A stretch of DNA of 4,709 nucleotides from a virus. Lineage: Duplodnaviria; Heunggongvirae; Uroviricota; Caudoviricetes. The DNA lies in the IMG/VR virus record IMGVR_UViG_2695420847_000008, one strand, 5' to 3'. Of this stretch, positions 1 to 4,709 are shown piece after piece. Made by a program: the position numbers and the translations under genes. Below the pieces are notes generated by a model. The model worked only from the letters and a program-made list of their open reading frames with translations, made no database searches and was not told where the DNA came from. Position 1 is the stretch's first letter; each line of letters begins with the position of its first letter.

Positions 1-126
1 CTGTGTCGGGAGCATCACAACGAGCTTCATGCGGATCCGCTGGCGTTCGAAGAAAAGCATGGTTCCCAGGTTGATTTAATTTTTCGTTTTCTTGATCACG
101 CCTTTGCGACTGGCGTGCTCGGGTAA
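1..126 (+). CDS. 3' end of an upstream phage gene (5' end outside window); Cys/His-rich C-terminal tail, possibly nuclease-like (NinG/YdfU-type position)
   Basis: Frame 1 is open from base 1 to TAA at 124-126. Translation: LCREHHNELHADPLAFEEKHGSQVDLIFRFLDHAFATGVLG*. The CxxHHxxxH spacing is reminiscent of HNH-type metal-binding motifs. Position directly upstream of rusA fits a lambdoid nin region. Family assignment is from memory only. Confidence 0.4.
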   Translation: MCREHHNELHADPLAFEEKHGSQVDLIFRFLDHAFATGVLG

Positions 127-138
127 AAGAGGTGACTG

Positions 139-498
139 ATGCTCATAGAGTTTGTTTTGCCTTACCCGCCGACGGTGAACACCTACTGGCGACGTCGTGG
201 CAGCACATATTTTGTATCAAAAGCCGGTGAGCGTTATCGCCGGGCTGTGGCGCTTATTGTTCGCCAGCAGCGGCTGAAATTAAGCCTGTCCGGAAGGCTG
301 GCGATAAAGGTGATTGCAGAGCCACCGGATAAGCGTCGTCGCGACCTGGACAACATTCTGAAAGCACCGCTGGATGCGCTGACGCATGCGGGAGTGCTCA
401 TTGATGACGAGCAGTTTGATGAAATCAATATTGTACGTGGTCAGCCAGTATCTGGTGGACGGCTGGGTGTGAAGATTTACAAAATTGAGAGTGAGTGA
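139..498 (+). CDS. rusA: RusA-family Holliday junction resolvase (crossover junction endodeoxyribonuclease)
   Basis: 119-aa ORF with ATG at 139 and an AAGAGG Shine-Dalgarno at 127-132 (6-nt spacing). The protein carries the RRRDLDN acidic motif and a later LIDDEQ acidic patch, matching my recollection of E. coli RusA (about 120 aa, same motif positions). Stop TGA at 496-498. Confidence 0.88.
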   Translation: MLIEFVLPYPPTVNTYWRRRGSTYFVSKAGERYRRAVALIVRQQRLKLSLSGRLAIKVIAEPPDKRRRDLDNILKAPLDALTHAGVLIDDEQFDEINIVRGQPVSGGRLGVKIYKIESE

Positions 499-1058
499 GC
501 GTAAATATGATATATCCGGAAATTACAGGCAAAAGCGGCGAACATTTACGCCTGAACACGCTGGAAGCAGTCTGGATCCAGGGGAAATTACGGATGTGGG
601 GGCGGTGGTCGTATATCGGTGGGGGTAAATCCGGAAATATGTTTAACCGGTTACTGGTTTCGAAAAAGCTGACGAAAACAGCAGTTAATGAGGTTTTACG
701 CAGAATGAAGAAATCCGGGCTGGAAAAAACGGAACTTGAGGCATTTTTTCGGGATATGACAAGAGGAAAGCAGAAGAGCTGGTTGTCACATTGTACAGAC
801 ACAGAGGCGTTGATTATTGATCGCGTTATCAGTGAGGTGCTTGGGGAATATCCCGGGCTAATCAATGTTCTCCGGCAAAGGTACGAAGGACGGGGAATGA
901 GCAAACTGAAAATGGCCGAAAGGTTAAATGCAGATCATCCTGATTGGTCGTTGGTTACGTGCAGACGCCGAATTGATCAATGGTTGGGGGTATCTGAATT
1001 TATGTTATATGCCCCCATGCGCATGGCTTTTGTTACAGAGAAAAATGTTGCAAACTGA
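495..1058 (+). CDS. Putative late-gene antiterminator Q (Phage_antitermQ-like)
   Basis: 187-aa ORF from GTG at 495, overlapping the rusA stop in a GTGA arrangement; an alternative ATG start lies at 507. The gene sits immediately upstream of a terminator-containing non-coding stretch, the canonical Q position. The residue pattern (W..W...GNMFNRLL; TDTEALIIDRVISEVLGEYPGLINVLRQRY; RRRIDQWLGVSEFML) resembles QuuD-type Q proteins as I remember them. No search was run. Confidence 0.55.
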   Translation: MSVNMIYPEITGKSGEHLRLNTLEAVWIQGKLRMWGRWSYIGGGKSGNMFNRLLVSKKLTKTAVNEVLRRMKKSGLEKTELEAFFRDMTRGKQKSWLSHCTDTEALIIDRVISEVLGEYPGLINVLRQRYEGRGMSKLKMAERLNADHPDWSLVTCRRRIDQWLGVSEFMLYAPMRMAFVTEKNVAN

Positions 1059-1085
1059 TCAATAAACTGCTTCAATCCGTATAAG
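1056..1085 (+). promoter_or_regulatory. Candidate late promoter (pR'-like): -35-like TGATCA at 1056-1061, -10-like TATAAG at 1080-1085
   Basis: Hexamers read directly from the sequence with an 18-bp spacer, located between the Q stop and a downstream intrinsic terminator as in lambda pR'/tR'. The match to consensus is weak. Confidence 0.2.
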
Positions 1086-1137
1086 CTTCGCAAAGCTGTA
1101 TCGCGAGGCGAAACGCAAGTTTTTTTCGCACAAGGAA

Positions 1138-1159
1138 GCCACCGGAAGGTGGTTTTTTT
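1138..1159 (+). terminator. Rho-independent terminator (tR'-like) downstream of the Q-like gene
   Basis: GC-rich stem CCACC (1139-1143) / GGTGG (1148-1152) with a GGAA tetraloop, followed by 7 T (1153-1159). A weaker stem (GCG-AAA-CGC) plus T7 run lies just upstream at about 1107-1126. Confidence 0.55.
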
Positions 1160-1282
1160 GTGTCCGCGATATACAGTAGCGCAATAAATTCGCTGGTGGT
1201 TATTAATACCGTTCTTTCAGCTTGCTGGCTTTTTCGACAAGAGTTATTGGTGTGTCACGTTAACCGGAAAAGGGAAAAAGAC

Positions 1283-1480
1283 ATGCTAAAACAGCAGGAT
1301 ATGACAGAAACCGCCAGAGTGGTGTTTAATGAATTAAGCGTTACCGAACCGGCGACAGTCGGGGAGATAGCGCAGAATACTTACCTTTCACGCGAACGCT
1401 GCCAGTTAATACTGACTCAGCTGGTTATGGCGGGTCTGGCAGACTATCAGTTCGGTTGTTACAGACGCCTTCCGCAGTGA
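1283..1480 (+). CDS. Small (65 aa) hypothetical protein with a predicted winged-helix/HTH DNA-binding fold (PapI/FaeA- or MarR-like pattern)
   Basis: ATG at 1283 preceded by AGGG at 1271-1274 (8-nt spacing); stop TGA at 1478-1480. The listed ORF start at 1160 (GTG) abuts the terminator T-run and has no RBS, so the shorter start is preferred. Sequence TVGEIAQNTYLSRERCQLILTQLVMAGLADY has the helix-turn-helix plus Gly-containing wing pattern of small wHTH regulators. Homology is not verified. Confidence 0.45.
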   Translation: MLKQQDMTETARVVFNELSVTEPATVGEIAQNTYLSRERCQLILTQLVMAGLADYQFGCYRRLPQ

Positions 1481-1494
1481 AGGCTTTTTTATTT
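1467..1494 (+). terminator. Rho-independent terminator at the end of the small ORF
   Basis: Stem GCCTTC (1467-1472) / GAAGGC (1479-1484) with a 6-nt loop containing the TGA stop, followed by TTTTTTATTT. An identical copy lies at 2179-2206 inside the duplicated segment. Confidence 0.55.
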
Positions 1495-1507
1495 GTGGTA
1501 AATGGGC

Positions 1508-1538
1508 GGCTGGTGGGTGTTAGGGGCACCCACCAGCC
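1508..1538 (+). promoter_or_regulatory. Perfect 12-bp inverted repeat (GGCTGGTGGGTG-N7-CACCCACCAGCC) in the methyltransferase leader
   Basis: Read directly: 1508-1519 is the exact reverse complement of 1527-1538, with a 7-nt spacer TTAGGGG. A second hairpin (CTGCTTT-GCGCA-AAAGCAG) lies at 1580-1598. Both are repeated 712 bp downstream (2220-2250 and 2292-2310). Confidence 0.4.
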
Positions 1539-1630
1539 ATCTGCTCATGCGTTGGGTTCACAAGCAAACCTCAGGCCCACTGCTTTGCGCAAAAGCAGAA
1601 TGAGCCTATCAGAGACAGGCTTAATGATCC

Positions 1631-2350
1631 ATGCTTAATACTGTAAAAATATCCAGTTGTAAGTTAATCAACGCTGATTGCCTGGAATTTATCCAGACCT
1701 TACCGGAAAACTCTGTCGATCTGATAGTCACAGACCCGCCATACTTTAAAGTGAAGCCCGAGGGCTGGGATAACCAGTGGAAGGGCGACGATGATTACCT
1801 GAAGTGGCTGGACCAGTGTCTGGCGCAGTTCTGGCGGGTGCTGAAACCTGCCGGAAGTCTTTACCTGTTCTGTGGCCATCGCCTGGCATCTGATATCGAA
1901 ATCATGATGCGTGAACGCTTCAGTGTGCTGAACCATATTATCTGGGCGAAGCCGTCCGGACGCTGGAACGGATGCAACAAGGAAAGCCTGCGGGCGTATT
2001 TCCCCGCCACAGAGCGCATTCTGTTCGCGGAACATTATCAGGGGCCGTATCGTCCGAAAGATGCCGGGTATGCGGCGAAGGGCAGTGCACTGAAACAGCA
2101 TGTGATGGCCCCGCTGATTTCTTACTTTCGTGATGCGCGAGGCGGGTCTGGCAGACTATCAGTTCGGTTGTTACAGACGCCTTCCGCAGTGAAGGCTTTT
2201 TTATTTGTGGTAAATGGGCGGCTGGTGGGTGTTAGGGGCACCCACCAGCCATCTGCTCATGCGTTGGGTTCACAAGCAAACCTCAGGCCCACTGCTTTGC
2301 GCAAAAGCAGAATGAGCCTATCAGAGACAGGCTTAATGATCCATGCTTAA
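1631..2350 (+). pseudogene. Truncated N-terminal fragment of a DNA methyltransferase (about 170 aa authentic sequence plus about 69 aa out-of-frame extension), created by the tandem duplication
   Basis: The 239-aa ORF matches the intact gene through ...PLISYFRDAR, then reads the duplicated small-ORF tail and leader out of frame (GGSGRLSVRLLQTPSAVKAF...), stopping at TAA 2348-2350. It retains the DPPY catalytic motif but lacks the C-terminal FxGxG AdoMet-binding motif. Confidence 0.7.
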
Positions 2351-2852
2351 TACTGTAAAAATATCCAGTTGTGAGTTAATCAACGCCGACTGCCTGGAAT
2401 TTATCCGGTCGTTACCCGAAAATTCTGTTGACCTGATAGTCACGGACCCGCCGTACTTTAAAGTGAAGCCTGAGGGCTGGGATAACCAGTGGAAGGGCGA
2501 CGATGATTACCTGAAGTGGCTGGACCAGTGTCTGGCGCAGTTCTGGCGGGTGCTGAAACCTGCCGGAAGTCTTTACCTGTTCTGTGGTCATCGCCTGGCA
2601 TCTGATATCGAAATCATGATGCGTGAACGCTTCAGTGTGCTGAACCATATTATCTGGGCGAAGCCGTCCGGACGCTGGAACGGATGCAACAAGGAAAGCC
2701 TGCGGGCGTATTTCCCCGCCACAGAGCGCATTCTGTTCGCGGAACATTATCAGGGGCCGTATCGTCCGAAAGATGCCGGGTATGCGGCGAAGGGCAGTGC
2801 ACTGAAACAGCATGTGATGGCCCCGCTGATTTCTTACTTTCGTGATGCGCGT
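2141..2852 (+). repeat. Tandem direct duplication, copy 2 (712 bp), continuing into the intact methyltransferase gene
   Basis: See copy 1. After 2851 the sequence continues with TGCTGCTCTGGGG (intact gene), whereas copy 1 is followed by the duplicated GGCGGGTCTGG segment. Confidence 0.85.
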
Positions 2853-3401
2853 GCTGCTCTGGGGATAACGGCAAAACAGATTGCAGATGCCACAGGAAAG
2901 AAAAACATGGTGTCGCACTGGTTCAGTGCCAGTCAGTGGCAGCTACCGAACGAAAGCGATTATCTGAAATTACAGTCGCTGTTTGCCCGGGTGGCAGAAG
3001 AGAAACATCAGCGGGGTGAACTGGAAAAGCCACATCACCAACTGGTCAGCACATACAGTGAGCTGAACCGGCAGTATACGGAACTGCTGAGTGAATATAA
3101 AAATTTGCGGCGGTATTTCGGTGTGACGGTGCAGGTGCCGTACACCGATGTGTGGACGTACAAACCGGTGCAGTACTATCCAGGGAAACATCCGTGCGAA
3201 AAACCGGCAGAAATGTTGCAGCAGATAATCAGCGCAAGCAGTCGTCCGGGAGACCTGGTTGCAGATTTCTTCATGGGGTCGGGGGCGACAGTGAAAGCAG
3301 CGATGGCGCTGGGACGTCGTGCAACTGGCGTTGAACTGGAGACTGAACGTTTTGAGCAGACGGTGCGGGAAGTACAGGATTTAATCATTCGTAACGGATG
3401 A
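2343..3401 (+). CDS. DNA methyltransferase, N6-adenine/N4-cytosine family (beta-class permuted; PF01555-like), probably an orphan phage N6-adenine MTase
   Basis: 352-aa ORF. The N-terminal region has DLIVTDPPYF (motif IV, DPPY) and RVLKPAGSLYLF. The C-terminal region has KHPCEKPAEMLQQII...GDLVADFFMGSGATVKAAMALGRRATGVE (motif I FxGxG, AdoMet binding). This order of motifs is typical of beta-class amino-MTases. A middle segment (AALGITAKQIADATGKKNMVSHW) looks HTH-like. No adjacent restriction endonuclease gene is visible. Confidence 0.88.
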   Translation: MLNTVKISSCELINADCLEFIRSLPENSVDLIVTDPPYFKVKPEGWDNQWKGDDDYLKWLDQCLAQFWRVLKPAGSLYLFCGHRLASDIEIMMRERFSVLNHIIWAKPSGRWNGCNKESLRAYFPATERILFAEHYQGPYRPKDAGYAAKGSALKQHVMAPLISYFRDARAALGITAKQIADATGKKNMVSHWFSASQWQLPNESDYLKLQSLFARVAEEKHQRGELEKPHHQLVSTYSELNRQYTELLSEYKNLRRYFGVTVQVPYTDVWTYKPVQYYPGKHPCEKPAEMLQQIISASSRPGDLVADFFMGSGATVKAAMALGRRATGVELETERFEQTVREVQDLIIRNG

Positions 3402-3441
3402 GATTGCGGAGTTAATCATGCGTCGTTATTATTCAGCAATC

Positions 3442-3517
3442 GGCCCTTTAGCTCAGTGGTGAGAGCGAGCGACTCATAATCGCCAGGTCGCTGGTTCAAA
3501 TCCAGCAAGGGCCACCA
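3442..3517 (+). tRNA. tRNA with CAU anticodon, most likely tRNA-Ile2 (lysidine type, ileX/ileZ-like), alternatively tRNA-Met
   Basis: Manual cloverleaf: acceptor GGCCCTT/AAGGGCC, D-arm GCTC-AGTGGTGA-GAGC, anticodon loop CTCATAA (anticodon CAT), T-arm GCTGG-TTCAAAT-CCAGC, discriminator A and an encoded CCA. The sequence closely resembles E. coli ileX as I recall it. Confidence 0.8.
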
Positions 3518-3524
3518 TCACATA

Positions 3525-3601
3525 CCGCCATTAGCTCATCAGGAAAGAGCGCCAGCTTTCGAAGCTGGTTGCGCGGAGTTCGGGTCCCCGAAGGCGGTCC
3601 A
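3525..3601 (+). tRNA. tRNA-Arg (anticodon UCG), with non-canonical features; possibly degenerate
   Basis: Manual fold: D-arm GCTC-ATCAGGAAA-GAGC; anticodon arm CCAGC-TTTCGAA-GCTGG (anticodon TCG); T-loop TTCGGGT; 3' TCCA. Irregularities: A-A mismatch in the acceptor stem (position 6:67), A-C mismatch in the T-stem, and G rather than A at position 58. Confidence 0.55.
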
Positions 3602-3614
3602 TTATCTGTATCCT

Positions 3615-3691
3615 GCGTTGTTAGCTCAGCCGGACAGAGCAATTGCCTTCTAAGCAATCGGTCACTGGTTCGAATCCAGTACAACGCGCCA
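3615..3691 (+). tRNA. tRNA-Arg (anticodon UCU, reads AGA/AGG)
   Basis: Manual cloverleaf: acceptor GCGTTGT/ACAACGC, D-arm GCTC-AGCCGGACA-GAGC, anticodon arm ATTGC-CTTCTAA-GCAAT (anticodon TCT), T-arm ACTGG-TTCGAAT-CCAGT, discriminator G and an encoded CCA. Architecture resembles argU. Confidence 0.85.
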
Positions 3692-3705
3692 CACTTATTT
3701 TCCCT

Positions 3706-3731
3706 GGCTCGCTTTTGCGGGCCTTTTTTTT
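3706..3731 (+). terminator. Rho-independent terminator downstream of the tRNA cluster
   Basis: 7-bp stem GGCTCGC (3706-3712) / GCGGGCC (3717-3723) with one G-U pair and a TTTT loop, followed by 8 T (3724-3731). Confidence 0.65.
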
Positions 3732-3964
3732 AAATATCTCACAATTCAGGCGGTTGACTGTTGTCTGGTTTGCGGGGAGTTTGTTAAAAGAAACTGGCAT
3801 GGTGAATCCCCCTGTGCGGAGGGGCGATCAGCAACCAGGTATATGGGATAATCGCGGATTCAGGTGCTGATACTGAATTCACCGGGAGGCACCCGGCACC
3901 ATGCTTTGCCACAAAAGTGTTGTTTCTGTTTTTCTCAAACTATCATCGTTATCCCTTTATTTCC

Positions 3965-3991
3965 GGCTGCGCATGGCGTGGCCTTTTTTTT
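3965..3991 (+). terminator. Possible second rho-independent terminator in the tRNA-to-nanS gap
   Basis: Stem GGCTGCGC (3965-3972) / GCGTGGCC (3976-3983), 8 bp including two G-U wobbles, with a 3-nt loop, followed by 8 T (3984-3991). Confidence 0.4.
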
Positions 3992-4077
3992 ACGACCAGC
4001 CACTGGCAGATGGCCATCCTGTAATTTGATTCCGGTTCCGGCTTTTTAACTCTGTTCCTGTACACGGGAGAAATTCG

Positions 4078-4709
4078 ATGTCGATTAAACATTATGATGT
4101 TGTCAGGGCGGCGTCGCCGTCAGACCTTGCGGAAAAGCTGACACATAAACTGAAAGAGGGCTGGCAGCCGTTTGGTAGTCCGGTGGCCATAACCCCTTAT
4201 ACCCTGATGCAGGCGATTGCAGCAGAAGGTGATGTGGTGGTCAGTGGTGCAACTGAGCCGGAGTGGTACTACGTCATCGTACTGGCCGGGCAGTCCAATG
4301 CCATGGCTTACGGTGAAGGGCTTCCGCTGCCGGATTCATACGATGCTCCGGATCCGCGTATTAAACAGCTGGCGCGCCGCAGTACAGTGACGCCGGGTGG
4401 GGCTGCCTGCAGATATAACGATATTATTCCGGCCGACCACTGCCTGCATGATGTGCAGGATATGAGTACGCTGAATCATCCGAAGGCAGACCTGAGCAAA
4501 GGGCAGTACGGCTGTGTCGGCCAGGGCTTACATATTGCCAAAAAACTGCTTCCGTATATCCCGAATAACGCGGGGATCCTGCTGGTACCATGCTGTCGTG
4601 GTGGTTCGGCATTCACCCAGGGCGCGGAGGGGACATTCAGTGCGGACACGGGGGCCAGCCAGGATTCGGCACGCTGGGGTGTGGGTAAACCGTTATATCA
4701 GGACCTGAT
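4078..4709 (+). CDS. nanS: Prophage sialate O-acetylesterase NanS-p-like protein (N-terminal DUF1737-like region plus SGNH/DUF303 esterase domain); 3' end outside window
   Basis: ATG at 4078 with GGGAG at 4066-4070. Frame 1 is open to the window end (210 codons, no stop; not in the supplied ORF track because it is incomplete). Translation MSIKHYDVVRAASPSDLAEKL...VIVLAGQSNAMAYGEGLP... contains the GQSN block typical of SGNH hydrolases. Both sequence and position (downstream of the phage tRNAs) match nanS-p/yjhS homologues of O157-type prophages as I recall them. Confidence 0.8.
   Translation, partial: MSIKHYDVVRAASPSDLAEKLTHKLKEGWQPFGSPVAITPYTLMQAIAAEGDVVVSGATEPEWYYVIVLAGQSNAMAYGEGLPLPDSYDAPDPRIKQLARRSTVTPGGAACRYNDIIPADHCLHDVQDMSTLNHPKADLSKGQYGCVGQGLHIAKKLLPYIPNNAGILLVPCCRGGSAFTQGAEGTFSADTGASQDSARWGVGKPLYQDL

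Follow-up and report, generated by a model that had tools for sequence, protein, structure and literature searches.

A probable M.EcoGII-type adenine methyltransferase gene in a lambdoid late-operon cassette, preceded by a conserved leader predicted to fold

We analysed a 4,709-nucleotide (nt) stretch of Caudoviricetes DNA (IMG/VR record IMGVR_UViG_2695420847_000008; hereafter the window) that carries an intact methyltransferase gene at 2343-3401 on the + strand. The gene starts with ATG and encodes a 352-amino-acid beta-class N6-adenine DNA methyltransferase of the M.EcoGII family. The window is the entire public record CYAO01000081.1, a 4709-nt scaffold of the draft assembly GCA_001283385.1. 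Its close relatives are all Escherichia coli prophages, and matches to at least part of it occur in 3493 of 5426 complete E. coli genomes. The methyltransferase is the last gene of a cassette that runs from orf65 through a terminator-like hairpin and a structured leader. This cassette lies at the start of the late operon, after a Q-type antiterminator gene and a terminator and before tRNA genes, a NanS-p-type esterase gene and lysis genes. The other genes in the window are those for RusA, the Q-like protein, the 65-amino-acid open reading frame (ORF) orf65, three tRNAs and NanS-p. A 711-nt repeat upstream of and within the methyltransferase gene is an artefact of scaffolding, as described below; features inside it are given at their downstream position, with copy 1 in brackets.

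The 352-amino-acid protein matched the Pfam profile N6_N4_Mtase (PF01555) over profile positions 1-219 of 221 (E 4.2e-43, 148.3 bits; curated cut-off 26.7 bits). Motif IV (DPPY; residues 35-38, nt 2445-2456) stands ahead of motif I (FMGSG; residues 310-314, nt 3270-3284), which is the beta-class order, and both motifs were unchanged in all 28 homologues aligned. A sequence search of the PDB matched M.BceJIV, M.RsrI, CcrM, M1.HpyAVI, M.MboIIA and M.PvuII. The AlphaFold model was of moderate confidence (mean predicted local distance difference test score (pLDDT) 67.5). When it was searched with Foldseek, every one of the best 46 matches (lowest E 4.8e-14) was a beta-class or Type III Mod methyltransferase, with M.BceJIV, CcrM, M.MboIIA and M.RsrI at the top. 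The initial annotation had called the protein a beta-class amino-methyltransferase, and the motif order, Pfam, PDB and Foldseek all agree with that assignment. A scan of NCBIfam returned sub-threshold matches only, the best being PRK11524 (116 bits, cut-off 292). An obligate dimer with labour divided between the subunits has been proposed for beta-class amino-methyltransferases in the literature.

Aligned to PF01555, 312 residues of the protein cover 219 profile positions, with an insert of ~90 residues between the two halves of the profile. The central region of the AlphaFold model is all-helical (helices 146-173, 177-184, 190-193, 204-223 and 238-254; pLDDT 63-83). HTH_3 matched the isolated central fragment at about residues 167-195 (E 0.008, 16.6 bits), under its 23-bit cut-off. 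The insert itself, which had been described as helix-turn-helix (HTH)-like, is present and predicted to be helical, and its resemblance to an HTH is weak. We found the exact protein on 7 contigs and 2829 homologues at E <= 1e-10, among which several 90% clusters have thousands of members. The leader and the methyltransferase gene occur together in 1917 of the 5426 complete E. coli genomes, at up to 8 sites per genome.

We found no endonuclease partner for the methyltransferase among the genes of the window by Pfam scan or PADLOC; PADLOC reported MTase_II models only, and only for the 352-amino-acid protein. This bears out its earlier description as an orphan. An NgoMIV-type endonuclease gene lies 3.4 kb upstream in the closest complete genome, where it is paired with a C5 methyltransferase of its own. 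In that prophage (L001 2622-4632, NZ_CM136167.1) the early region carries the C5 cytosine methyltransferase gene, the NgoMIV-family endonuclease gene and a QueH gene, all upstream of the DUF968 and RusA genes. The NZ_CM136167.1 prophage thus has a complete restriction-modification system alongside the orphan methyltransferase.

The gene upstream of the cassette (507-1058, +) encodes a Q-like late antiterminator of 183 amino acids. Its ATG is at 507, where the source contig annotation also places it (507-1058), and the mechanically called ORF begins at a GTG at 495. The protein matched Pfam DUF1133 (4.6e-104) and PHROG 753 (phrog_753), labelled ‘anti-termination protein Q-like’ (3.8e-75), and gave a marginal match to Phage_antitermQ (8.3e-07, 29.4 bits; cut-off 26). 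About 80 nt past its stop codon is a tR'-like intrinsic terminator (1139-1159, +), a hairpin CCACC-GGAA-GGTGG (1139-1152 in the terminator scan) followed by T7. A second terminator-like hairpin (2179-2206, +; copy 1, 1467-1494) stands at the end of orf65. It has the form GCCTTC-N6-GAAGGC followed by TTTTTTATTT, and compensatory changes preserve the hairpin in other genera. Past the esterase gene (labelled ‘SASA family carbohydrate esterase’), the closest complete genome continues with holin, lysozyme, Rz-like and terminase genes, which places the window at the start of a lambdoid late operon.

The same order was found outside E. coli. Homologues from Klebsiella, Pantoea and Salmonella (74-77% identical) stand in the order antiterminator, terminator, small ORF, ~150-nt spacer, methyltransferase, holin and lysozyme. 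Their antiterminators belong to three Pfam families (Phage_antitermQ, DUF1133 and Antiterm PF03589), with one lacking a Pfam match, and whichever antiterminator type is present, the alignment shows an equivalent GC hairpin and T7-8 run after it. In many Stx2a phages, the cassette sits between Q and the tRNA genes and stx2AB. The slot of the Shiga toxin (Stx) genes, a late-operon cargo (‘moron’) position, is likewise downstream of Q, pR' and tR', and phage LC567834 has the order Q, orf65, methyltransferase, tRNAs, stx2AB and nanS-p. The window prophage differs in having no stx; its spacer at 3692-4077 holds an STnc100-family small RNA (sRNA) match. It is established for Stx phages that pR' is constitutive, that its transcripts terminate at tR' in lysogeny, and that read-through after induction depends on Q.

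A consensus scan of the + strand from 900 to 4200 gave no sigma-70-like promoter, and we recognised no qut site in the window. A by-eye candidate for pR' (TTGCAA, 1048-1053, with TTCAAT, 1071-1076) was poor and was not adopted. Because pR' and qut could not be identified, Q dependence is drawn from the terminators and from synteny, and late, Q-dependent expression of the methyltransferase appears well supported by this context. Such expression also fits the silence reported for M.EcoGI and M.EcoGII. The gene had been placed downstream of pR' and tR' and under late control. The late placement holds, with the gene on the same strand behind an antiterminator and a terminator across genera and antiterminator families. 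The position relative to tR' is backed by the Q-like gene, the two terminator hairpins and the conserved order; the pR' part has no identifiable promoter or qut site behind it. Carter et al. describe the same two genes between a 184-amino-acid antiterminator and stx2e in an Stx2e prophage.

The first gene of the cassette, orf65 (1283-1480, +), encodes a small, conserved, winged-helix-like protein of 65 amino acids in PHROG 331 (1.4e-37), a family labelled ‘unknown function’. Its Pfam matches to TrmB, MarR and wHTH were all sub-threshold, and a profile search of the PDB with orf65 gave non-significant matches only. The single-sequence AlphaFold model (pLDDT 53) was too poor for use. We found orf65 upstream of the methyltransferase in 105 of 117 viral loci and in 54 of 80 genome loci. 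The loci without it mostly still have the leader, which then directly follows tR'. Upstream of orf65 is a conserved block, CTTGCTG-N13-AGAGTTAT-N2-GT-N-TGT (1221-1257, +), that is invariant in six loci with different antiterminators. This block did not pass the sigma-70 scan and could be a 5' untranslated region, an operator or a weak promoter.

These features raise the question of whether the cassette is a self-contained unit, with orf65 and the block at 1221-1257 as its controller in the manner of the C proteins of restriction-modification systems or of Com/Mom of phage Mu. In that case mainly orf65 and the leader, and not Q antitermination, would govern expression of the methyltransferase. 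It would fit such a unit that conservation is higher in orf65 (80-94% identity between E. coli, Klebsiella, Pantoea and Salmonella) than in the methyltransferase (74-94%), that the 37-nt block is invariant across antiterminator types, and that the cassette is mobile as a unit, most phage matches starting at ~1182-1192, just past tR'. Mu Mom has also been cited beside M.EcoGII as silent and toxic. However, the block does not resemble a sigma-70 promoter, and orf65 is missing from 12 of the 117 viral and 26 of the 80 genome loci, where the leader and methyltransferase are mostly kept. A terminator-like hairpin also stands between orf65 and the methyltransferase, and the HTH matches of orf65 stay below threshold while its model is of low pLDDT. 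We therefore consider control by the cassette itself unlikely, and Q-timed expression from the late operon remains the preferred reading.

The com-mom operon of phage Mu offers a comparison. Both systems would give a temperate phage a toxic adenine-modifying enzyme that is silent in the lysogen and made late. In each, the gene for a small protein stands directly upstream, and an mRNA structure covers the translation start, as known for the Com mechanism of Mu and proposed for the leader here. Mom differs in its product, N6-carboxymethyl adenine, and in lying outside PF01555. The small proteins differ too, Com having a zinc finger and orf65 being winged-helix-like and dispensable in a quarter of the loci. 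We claim no homology between the two systems.

Between the orf65 hairpin and the methyltransferase start is a conserved leader of ~125 nt (2215-2342, +; copy 1, 1503-1630, 712 nt upstream) with covariation. From an alignment of 55 distinct leaders, it is predicted to fold into a three-way junction (P0, P1 and P2) followed by a hairpin (P3). P0 joins 2215-2219 to 2287-2291 (UGGGC with GCCCA, one double compensatory change). P1 is a hairpin of 12 bp (2220-2250), nine of whose pairs vary on both sides. P2 joins 2254-2257 to 2275-2278, and its closing pair is CG in 28, AU in 12, UA in 8 and UG in 6. The P3 hairpin (2292-2310) is followed by a conserved single-stranded stretch, UGAGCCUAUCAGAG (2313-2326), and by UGAUC (2336-2340), all on the + strand.

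We observed that 93.5% of the leader cells were paired, compared to 25-40% in slid controls, and none of 500 shuffles reached the observed values. In all, 14 pairs change on both sides. The balance of ~45 G-U to ~19 A-C cells favours the + strand, and the window copy of the leader had a folding z-score of −3.7. Between genera, identity is 71-85% in the spacer that precedes the start codon and 67-74% in the adjacent coding sequence of the same pairs. A covariance model of the leader (R1) scored 139 bits both at 2201-2352 and at 1489-1640. The motif was found only directly upstream of M.EcoGII-family genes, at 54 loci and in both window copies. In all 119 testable viral loci, the methyltransferase ATG lies 52-53 nt after the leader core.

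No Rfam 15 family matched the leader on the + strand, and the literature searched, a limited library, describes no RNA element or sRNA at this position. A weak Rfam match was seen on the minus strand at 1507-1571 and 2219-2283 to the Pseudomonas sRNA P26 (24 bits, gathering threshold 36). We rejected this identity as probably a mere hairpin resemblance; the match overlaps P1 on the opposite strand, and the G-U pairs favour the + strand. Three other candidates were also rejected. A helix of AUCA (2325-2328) with UGAU (2336-2339) has one pair broken in 20 of the 55 sequences, and the variation on the UGAGC side of a GCUCA-UGAGC pairing was uncompensated on inspection of the alignment. A small ORF spanning the leader, such as the TTG ORF at 1456-1638, fails because no + frame was open in more than 17 of the 55 sequences and indels break the frame. 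In Photorhabdus and Xenorhabdus, the homologues have orf65 and, of the leader, just a P1-like hairpin (GGCUGGUG…CACCAGCC or versions of it with compensating changes), which may represent a reduced or an ancestral state of the element. The P1-like hairpin in five of these loci (L068, L071, L074, L080 and L081) lies ~100 nt upstream of the methyltransferase start.

The leader could also adopt other pairings. An alternative helix, P0' (AUGGGC with GCUCAU), would exclude P0 and P2; it is 99.7% pairable, with thirteen one-sided, pair-preserving changes. The P2 loop (CAUG…GGUCA) has its complement in UGAUC-YAUG at the start codon; this pairing is 96-97% pairable, with one-sided changes only. Both P0' and the loop-start pairing are compatible with the alignment data. 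We observed no canonical Shine-Dalgarno sequence before the methyltransferase start. UGAUC is complementary to the GAUCA that adjoins the anti-Shine-Dalgarno of 16S rRNA. Because of this complementarity, the missing Shine-Dalgarno sequence and the alternative pairings, we put forward, tentatively and at somewhat less than even confidence, that the leader is an undescribed cis-regulatory RNA dedicated to M.EcoGII-family genes. It would act as a bistable switch that occludes the start and, in response to a ligand, a protein, RNase III or folding kinetics, holds off translation of the toxic methyltransferase until the right lytic moment.

The window methyltransferase was identical to M.EcoGII at 335 of 350 residues over its full length, including the central region, as compared with an M.EcoGII sequence taken from the machine-read supplementary table of Ochiai et al. 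2024 (SUPREM) rather than from a database entry. About 5 of the 15 mismatched residues occupy alignment columns with no or almost no variation in the family (NHIIWA, KPVQ and GRRA). Because of their position, these look like optical character recognition errors in the supplement, and the true identity is probably near 97%. The ~10 real substitutions include A148E, S151R, S164A, S191P, Q244K and T246M in the central region. The N-terminal allele of the window protein (…CELINADCLEFIRSLP…) is the same as that of M.EcoGII, and the window protein has three extra C-terminal residues (RNG; 352 compared to 349 amino acids). A 349-amino-acid cluster representative (P0007) was ruled out as M.EcoGII itself at 90% identity.

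According to Murray et al. 2018 (PMC5778455), M.EcoGII methylates adenine in any context and M.EcoGI behaves alike; the two come from E. coli O104:H4 C227-11, are identical at 333 of 349 residues and are both non-specific. The window protein is thus no further from M.EcoGII than M.EcoGI is. M.EcoGII is described there as prophage-borne, unexpressed in its native strain and slowing growth on expression, and the enzyme of phage 1720a-02 is named as a close relative. The window is 94% identical to phage 1720a-02 at the nucleotide level. The literature also reports M.EcoGI and M.EcoGII as silent in the lysogen and toxic if expressed constitutively. Anc291 and SUPREM, two reconstructed ancestors, are separated from M.EcoGII by more substitutions than the window protein is, and they are reported to stay non-site-specific (Ochiai et al. 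2024). REBASE-based typing lists homologues at 92-94% amino-acid similarity as ‘nonspecific’, and homologues leave no methylation motif in the methylomes of cultured Shiga toxin-producing E. coli. The window protein shares with M.EcoGII and M.EcoGI the order of DPPY, central region and FxGxG, a similar length, a prophage location and the lack of an endonuclease partner. It differs in what is recorded of its setting, as the excerpts of the published descriptions do not include a Q, terminator, orf65 and leader context.

By homology, then, the window methyltransferase is an already characterised enzyme type and not a new one. Given its close homology to the non-specific M.EcoGII and M.EcoGI, no specificity beyond A is expected, and its target is probably any adenine. 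The initial annotation had held that the target cannot be read from the sequence; the near-identity to a non-specific enzyme has overtaken that statement. A sequence-specific orphan enzyme with a Dam- or CcrM-like regulatory role in host or phage would accord with the ‘site-specific DNA-methyltransferase’ label given by annotation pipelines and with the nearest solved structures, since M.BceJIV, CcrM and RsrI recognise specific sequences. M.BceJIV (8URK), CcrM (6PBD), M.MboIIA (1G60) and M.RsrI (1EG2) do share the catalytic fold and both motifs with the window protein (sequence E 2e-25 to 7.5e-15; Foldseek probability 1.0; target-normalised TM-scores 0.47-0.69). They differ in being sequence-specific, in being only 17-23% identical and in lacking the ~90-residue helical insert of the M.EcoGII family. 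Compared to that 17-23%, identity to M.EcoGII is at least 96%, central region included. M.EcoGI (95% identical to M.EcoGII) and the far more diverged reconstructed ancestors are reported as non-specific in the work cited above, and the typed homologues at 92-94% similarity are non-specific as well. A sequence-specific enzyme is accordingly very improbable, and we retain the M.EcoGII-type assignment.

The 711-nt repeat, which was absent from the earlier account of this DNA, makes the window appear to carry a second methyltransferase gene. Copy 1 (1429-2139, +) is the end of the first scaffolded contig and contains the 3' end of orf65, leader copy 1 and the 5' part of the methyltransferase gene. 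Copy 2 (2141-2851, +) is the start of the second contig, and its allele of the 5' gene segment is M.EcoGII-like. Between them, position 2140 is an N in the public record CYAO01000081.1 and an A in the window. The copies differ by 14 mismatches over 711 nt, clustered at 2373-2471 (within the first 130 nt of the gene) with one at 2588, and copy 2 also differs from the closest genome at 14 sites. The apparent truncated ORF at 1631-2350 (239 amino acids) reads through the join at 2140 and covers PF01555 positions 1-105 of 221 only.

We observed the same arrangement in a sister assembly (CYDB01000091.1), also with an N at the join and 3 nt shorter. The three closest complete genomes (99.5-99.7% identical) span 3997 nt, which is 4709 minus 712, and have a single copy; window positions 1-2139 are 100% identical to the single-copy genome NZ_CM136167.1, read straight through. 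The exact 352-amino-acid protein was found on single-copy metagenome scaffolds in a RusA, Q and orf65 context. The join sequence was not present in one piece in any of the 5426 complete E. coli genomes. Because of the N at 2140, the sister join that differs by 3 nt, the single-copy genomes and the missing one-piece junction, the upstream truncated copy is a scaffold-join artefact and the true locus is single-copy. The simplest reading is that two overlapping contigs with two prophage alleles were placed end to end across a one-N gap when they should have been merged. Between Q and the methyltransferase, the window thus contains a 712-nt artefactual repeat, and the intact gene at 2343-3401 is natural. 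A real tandem duplication or recombination of two prophages, leaving a truncated N-terminal fragment and a second terminator and leader unit, would account for the recurrence of the arrangement in CYAO01000081 and CYDB01000091 and for the 14 clustered differences expected of two recombining alleles, but it is highly unlikely on the evidence just given, on the 1-2 nt of overlap at the join and on the fact that the 4.7-kb contig is the whole record.

Taken together, it is likely that the gene at 2343-3401 encodes a lambdoid-prophage enzyme of the M.EcoGII/M.EcoGI type, carried in a late-operon cassette and timed by Q, with an artefactual copy upstream. In the lysogen, transcripts from the late promoter would stop at tR' (1139-1159) and then at the hairpin at the end of orf65, and the toxic enzyme would not be made. 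After induction, Q-modified RNA polymerase would read through the terminators. The enzyme would then be made beside the lysis and morphogenesis proteins and would methylate adenines across the replicating phage DNA, so that progeny DNA would be protected from many restriction enzymes with A-containing sites. More speculatively, the leader RNA probably limits or times translation of the methyltransferase. An anti-restriction role had also been suggested for this gene, and the literature already gives that reading for the M.EcoGII enzyme family.

Several observations weigh against this interpretation. The ~10 real substitutions relative to M.EcoGII could in principle alter the properties of the enzyme, the non-specificity of this allele being predicted from homology, and the comparison sequence came from a machine-read table. 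The U-run after the orf65 hairpin is not kept outside E. coli-like loci. Neither pR' nor qut was recognisable, as Carter et al. also report for the 184-amino-acid antiterminator (183 here) of the related Stx2e prophage. The block at 1221-1257 could be the cassette's own promoter or operator, and the single N could hide a real junction, which we judge unlikely.

The methyltransferase itself carries little weight as a discovery, as its type is already characterised. The comparative picture offers a concrete, testable explanation of why M.EcoGII-type enzymes are silent in lysogens, namely that their genes lie behind tR' as the late operon begins, whatever the antiterminator. The gene also travels with a strongly conserved small protein and with a structured leader that no Rfam family covers. 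The conserved folded leader RNA in front of the gene may be new; the rest is known. A leader that proved to be a translational switch would count as a new regulatory RNA and give a practical handle for expressing or silencing a toxic enzyme whose cloning is difficult. The stx2 late transcript of Stx phages includes the cassette. Users of contig CYAO01000081.1 should disregard the seeming second, truncated methyltransferase gene, which arose in scaffolding.

The remaining features of the window flank the cassette. Upstream, the RusA Holliday-junction resolvase gene (139-498, +; Pfam RusA 1.9e-16, and RusA family in the closest genome) marks the end of the early/nin region. Downstream, ARAGORN found three phage tRNA genes (3442-3691, +) with anticodon CAT and for Arg-TCG and Arg-TCT; the CAT tRNA is called Met by ARAGORN and Ile in RefSeq. 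Stx phages have this CAT/TCG/TCT cluster upstream of stx. The NanS-p-type esterase gene (4078-4709, +; DUF1737 and SASA, Pfam DUF1737 8.5e-16) is present as its 5' part only and runs off the contig. The spacer between the tRNA genes and nanS-p, which is the slot of stx2AB in Stx2a phages (LC567834), holds the full-length match to the STnc100 sRNA family (3768-3940, +; Rfam RF02076, 108 bits, gathering threshold 47). Terminator-like hairpins at 3706-3731 and 3965-3991 flank this match.

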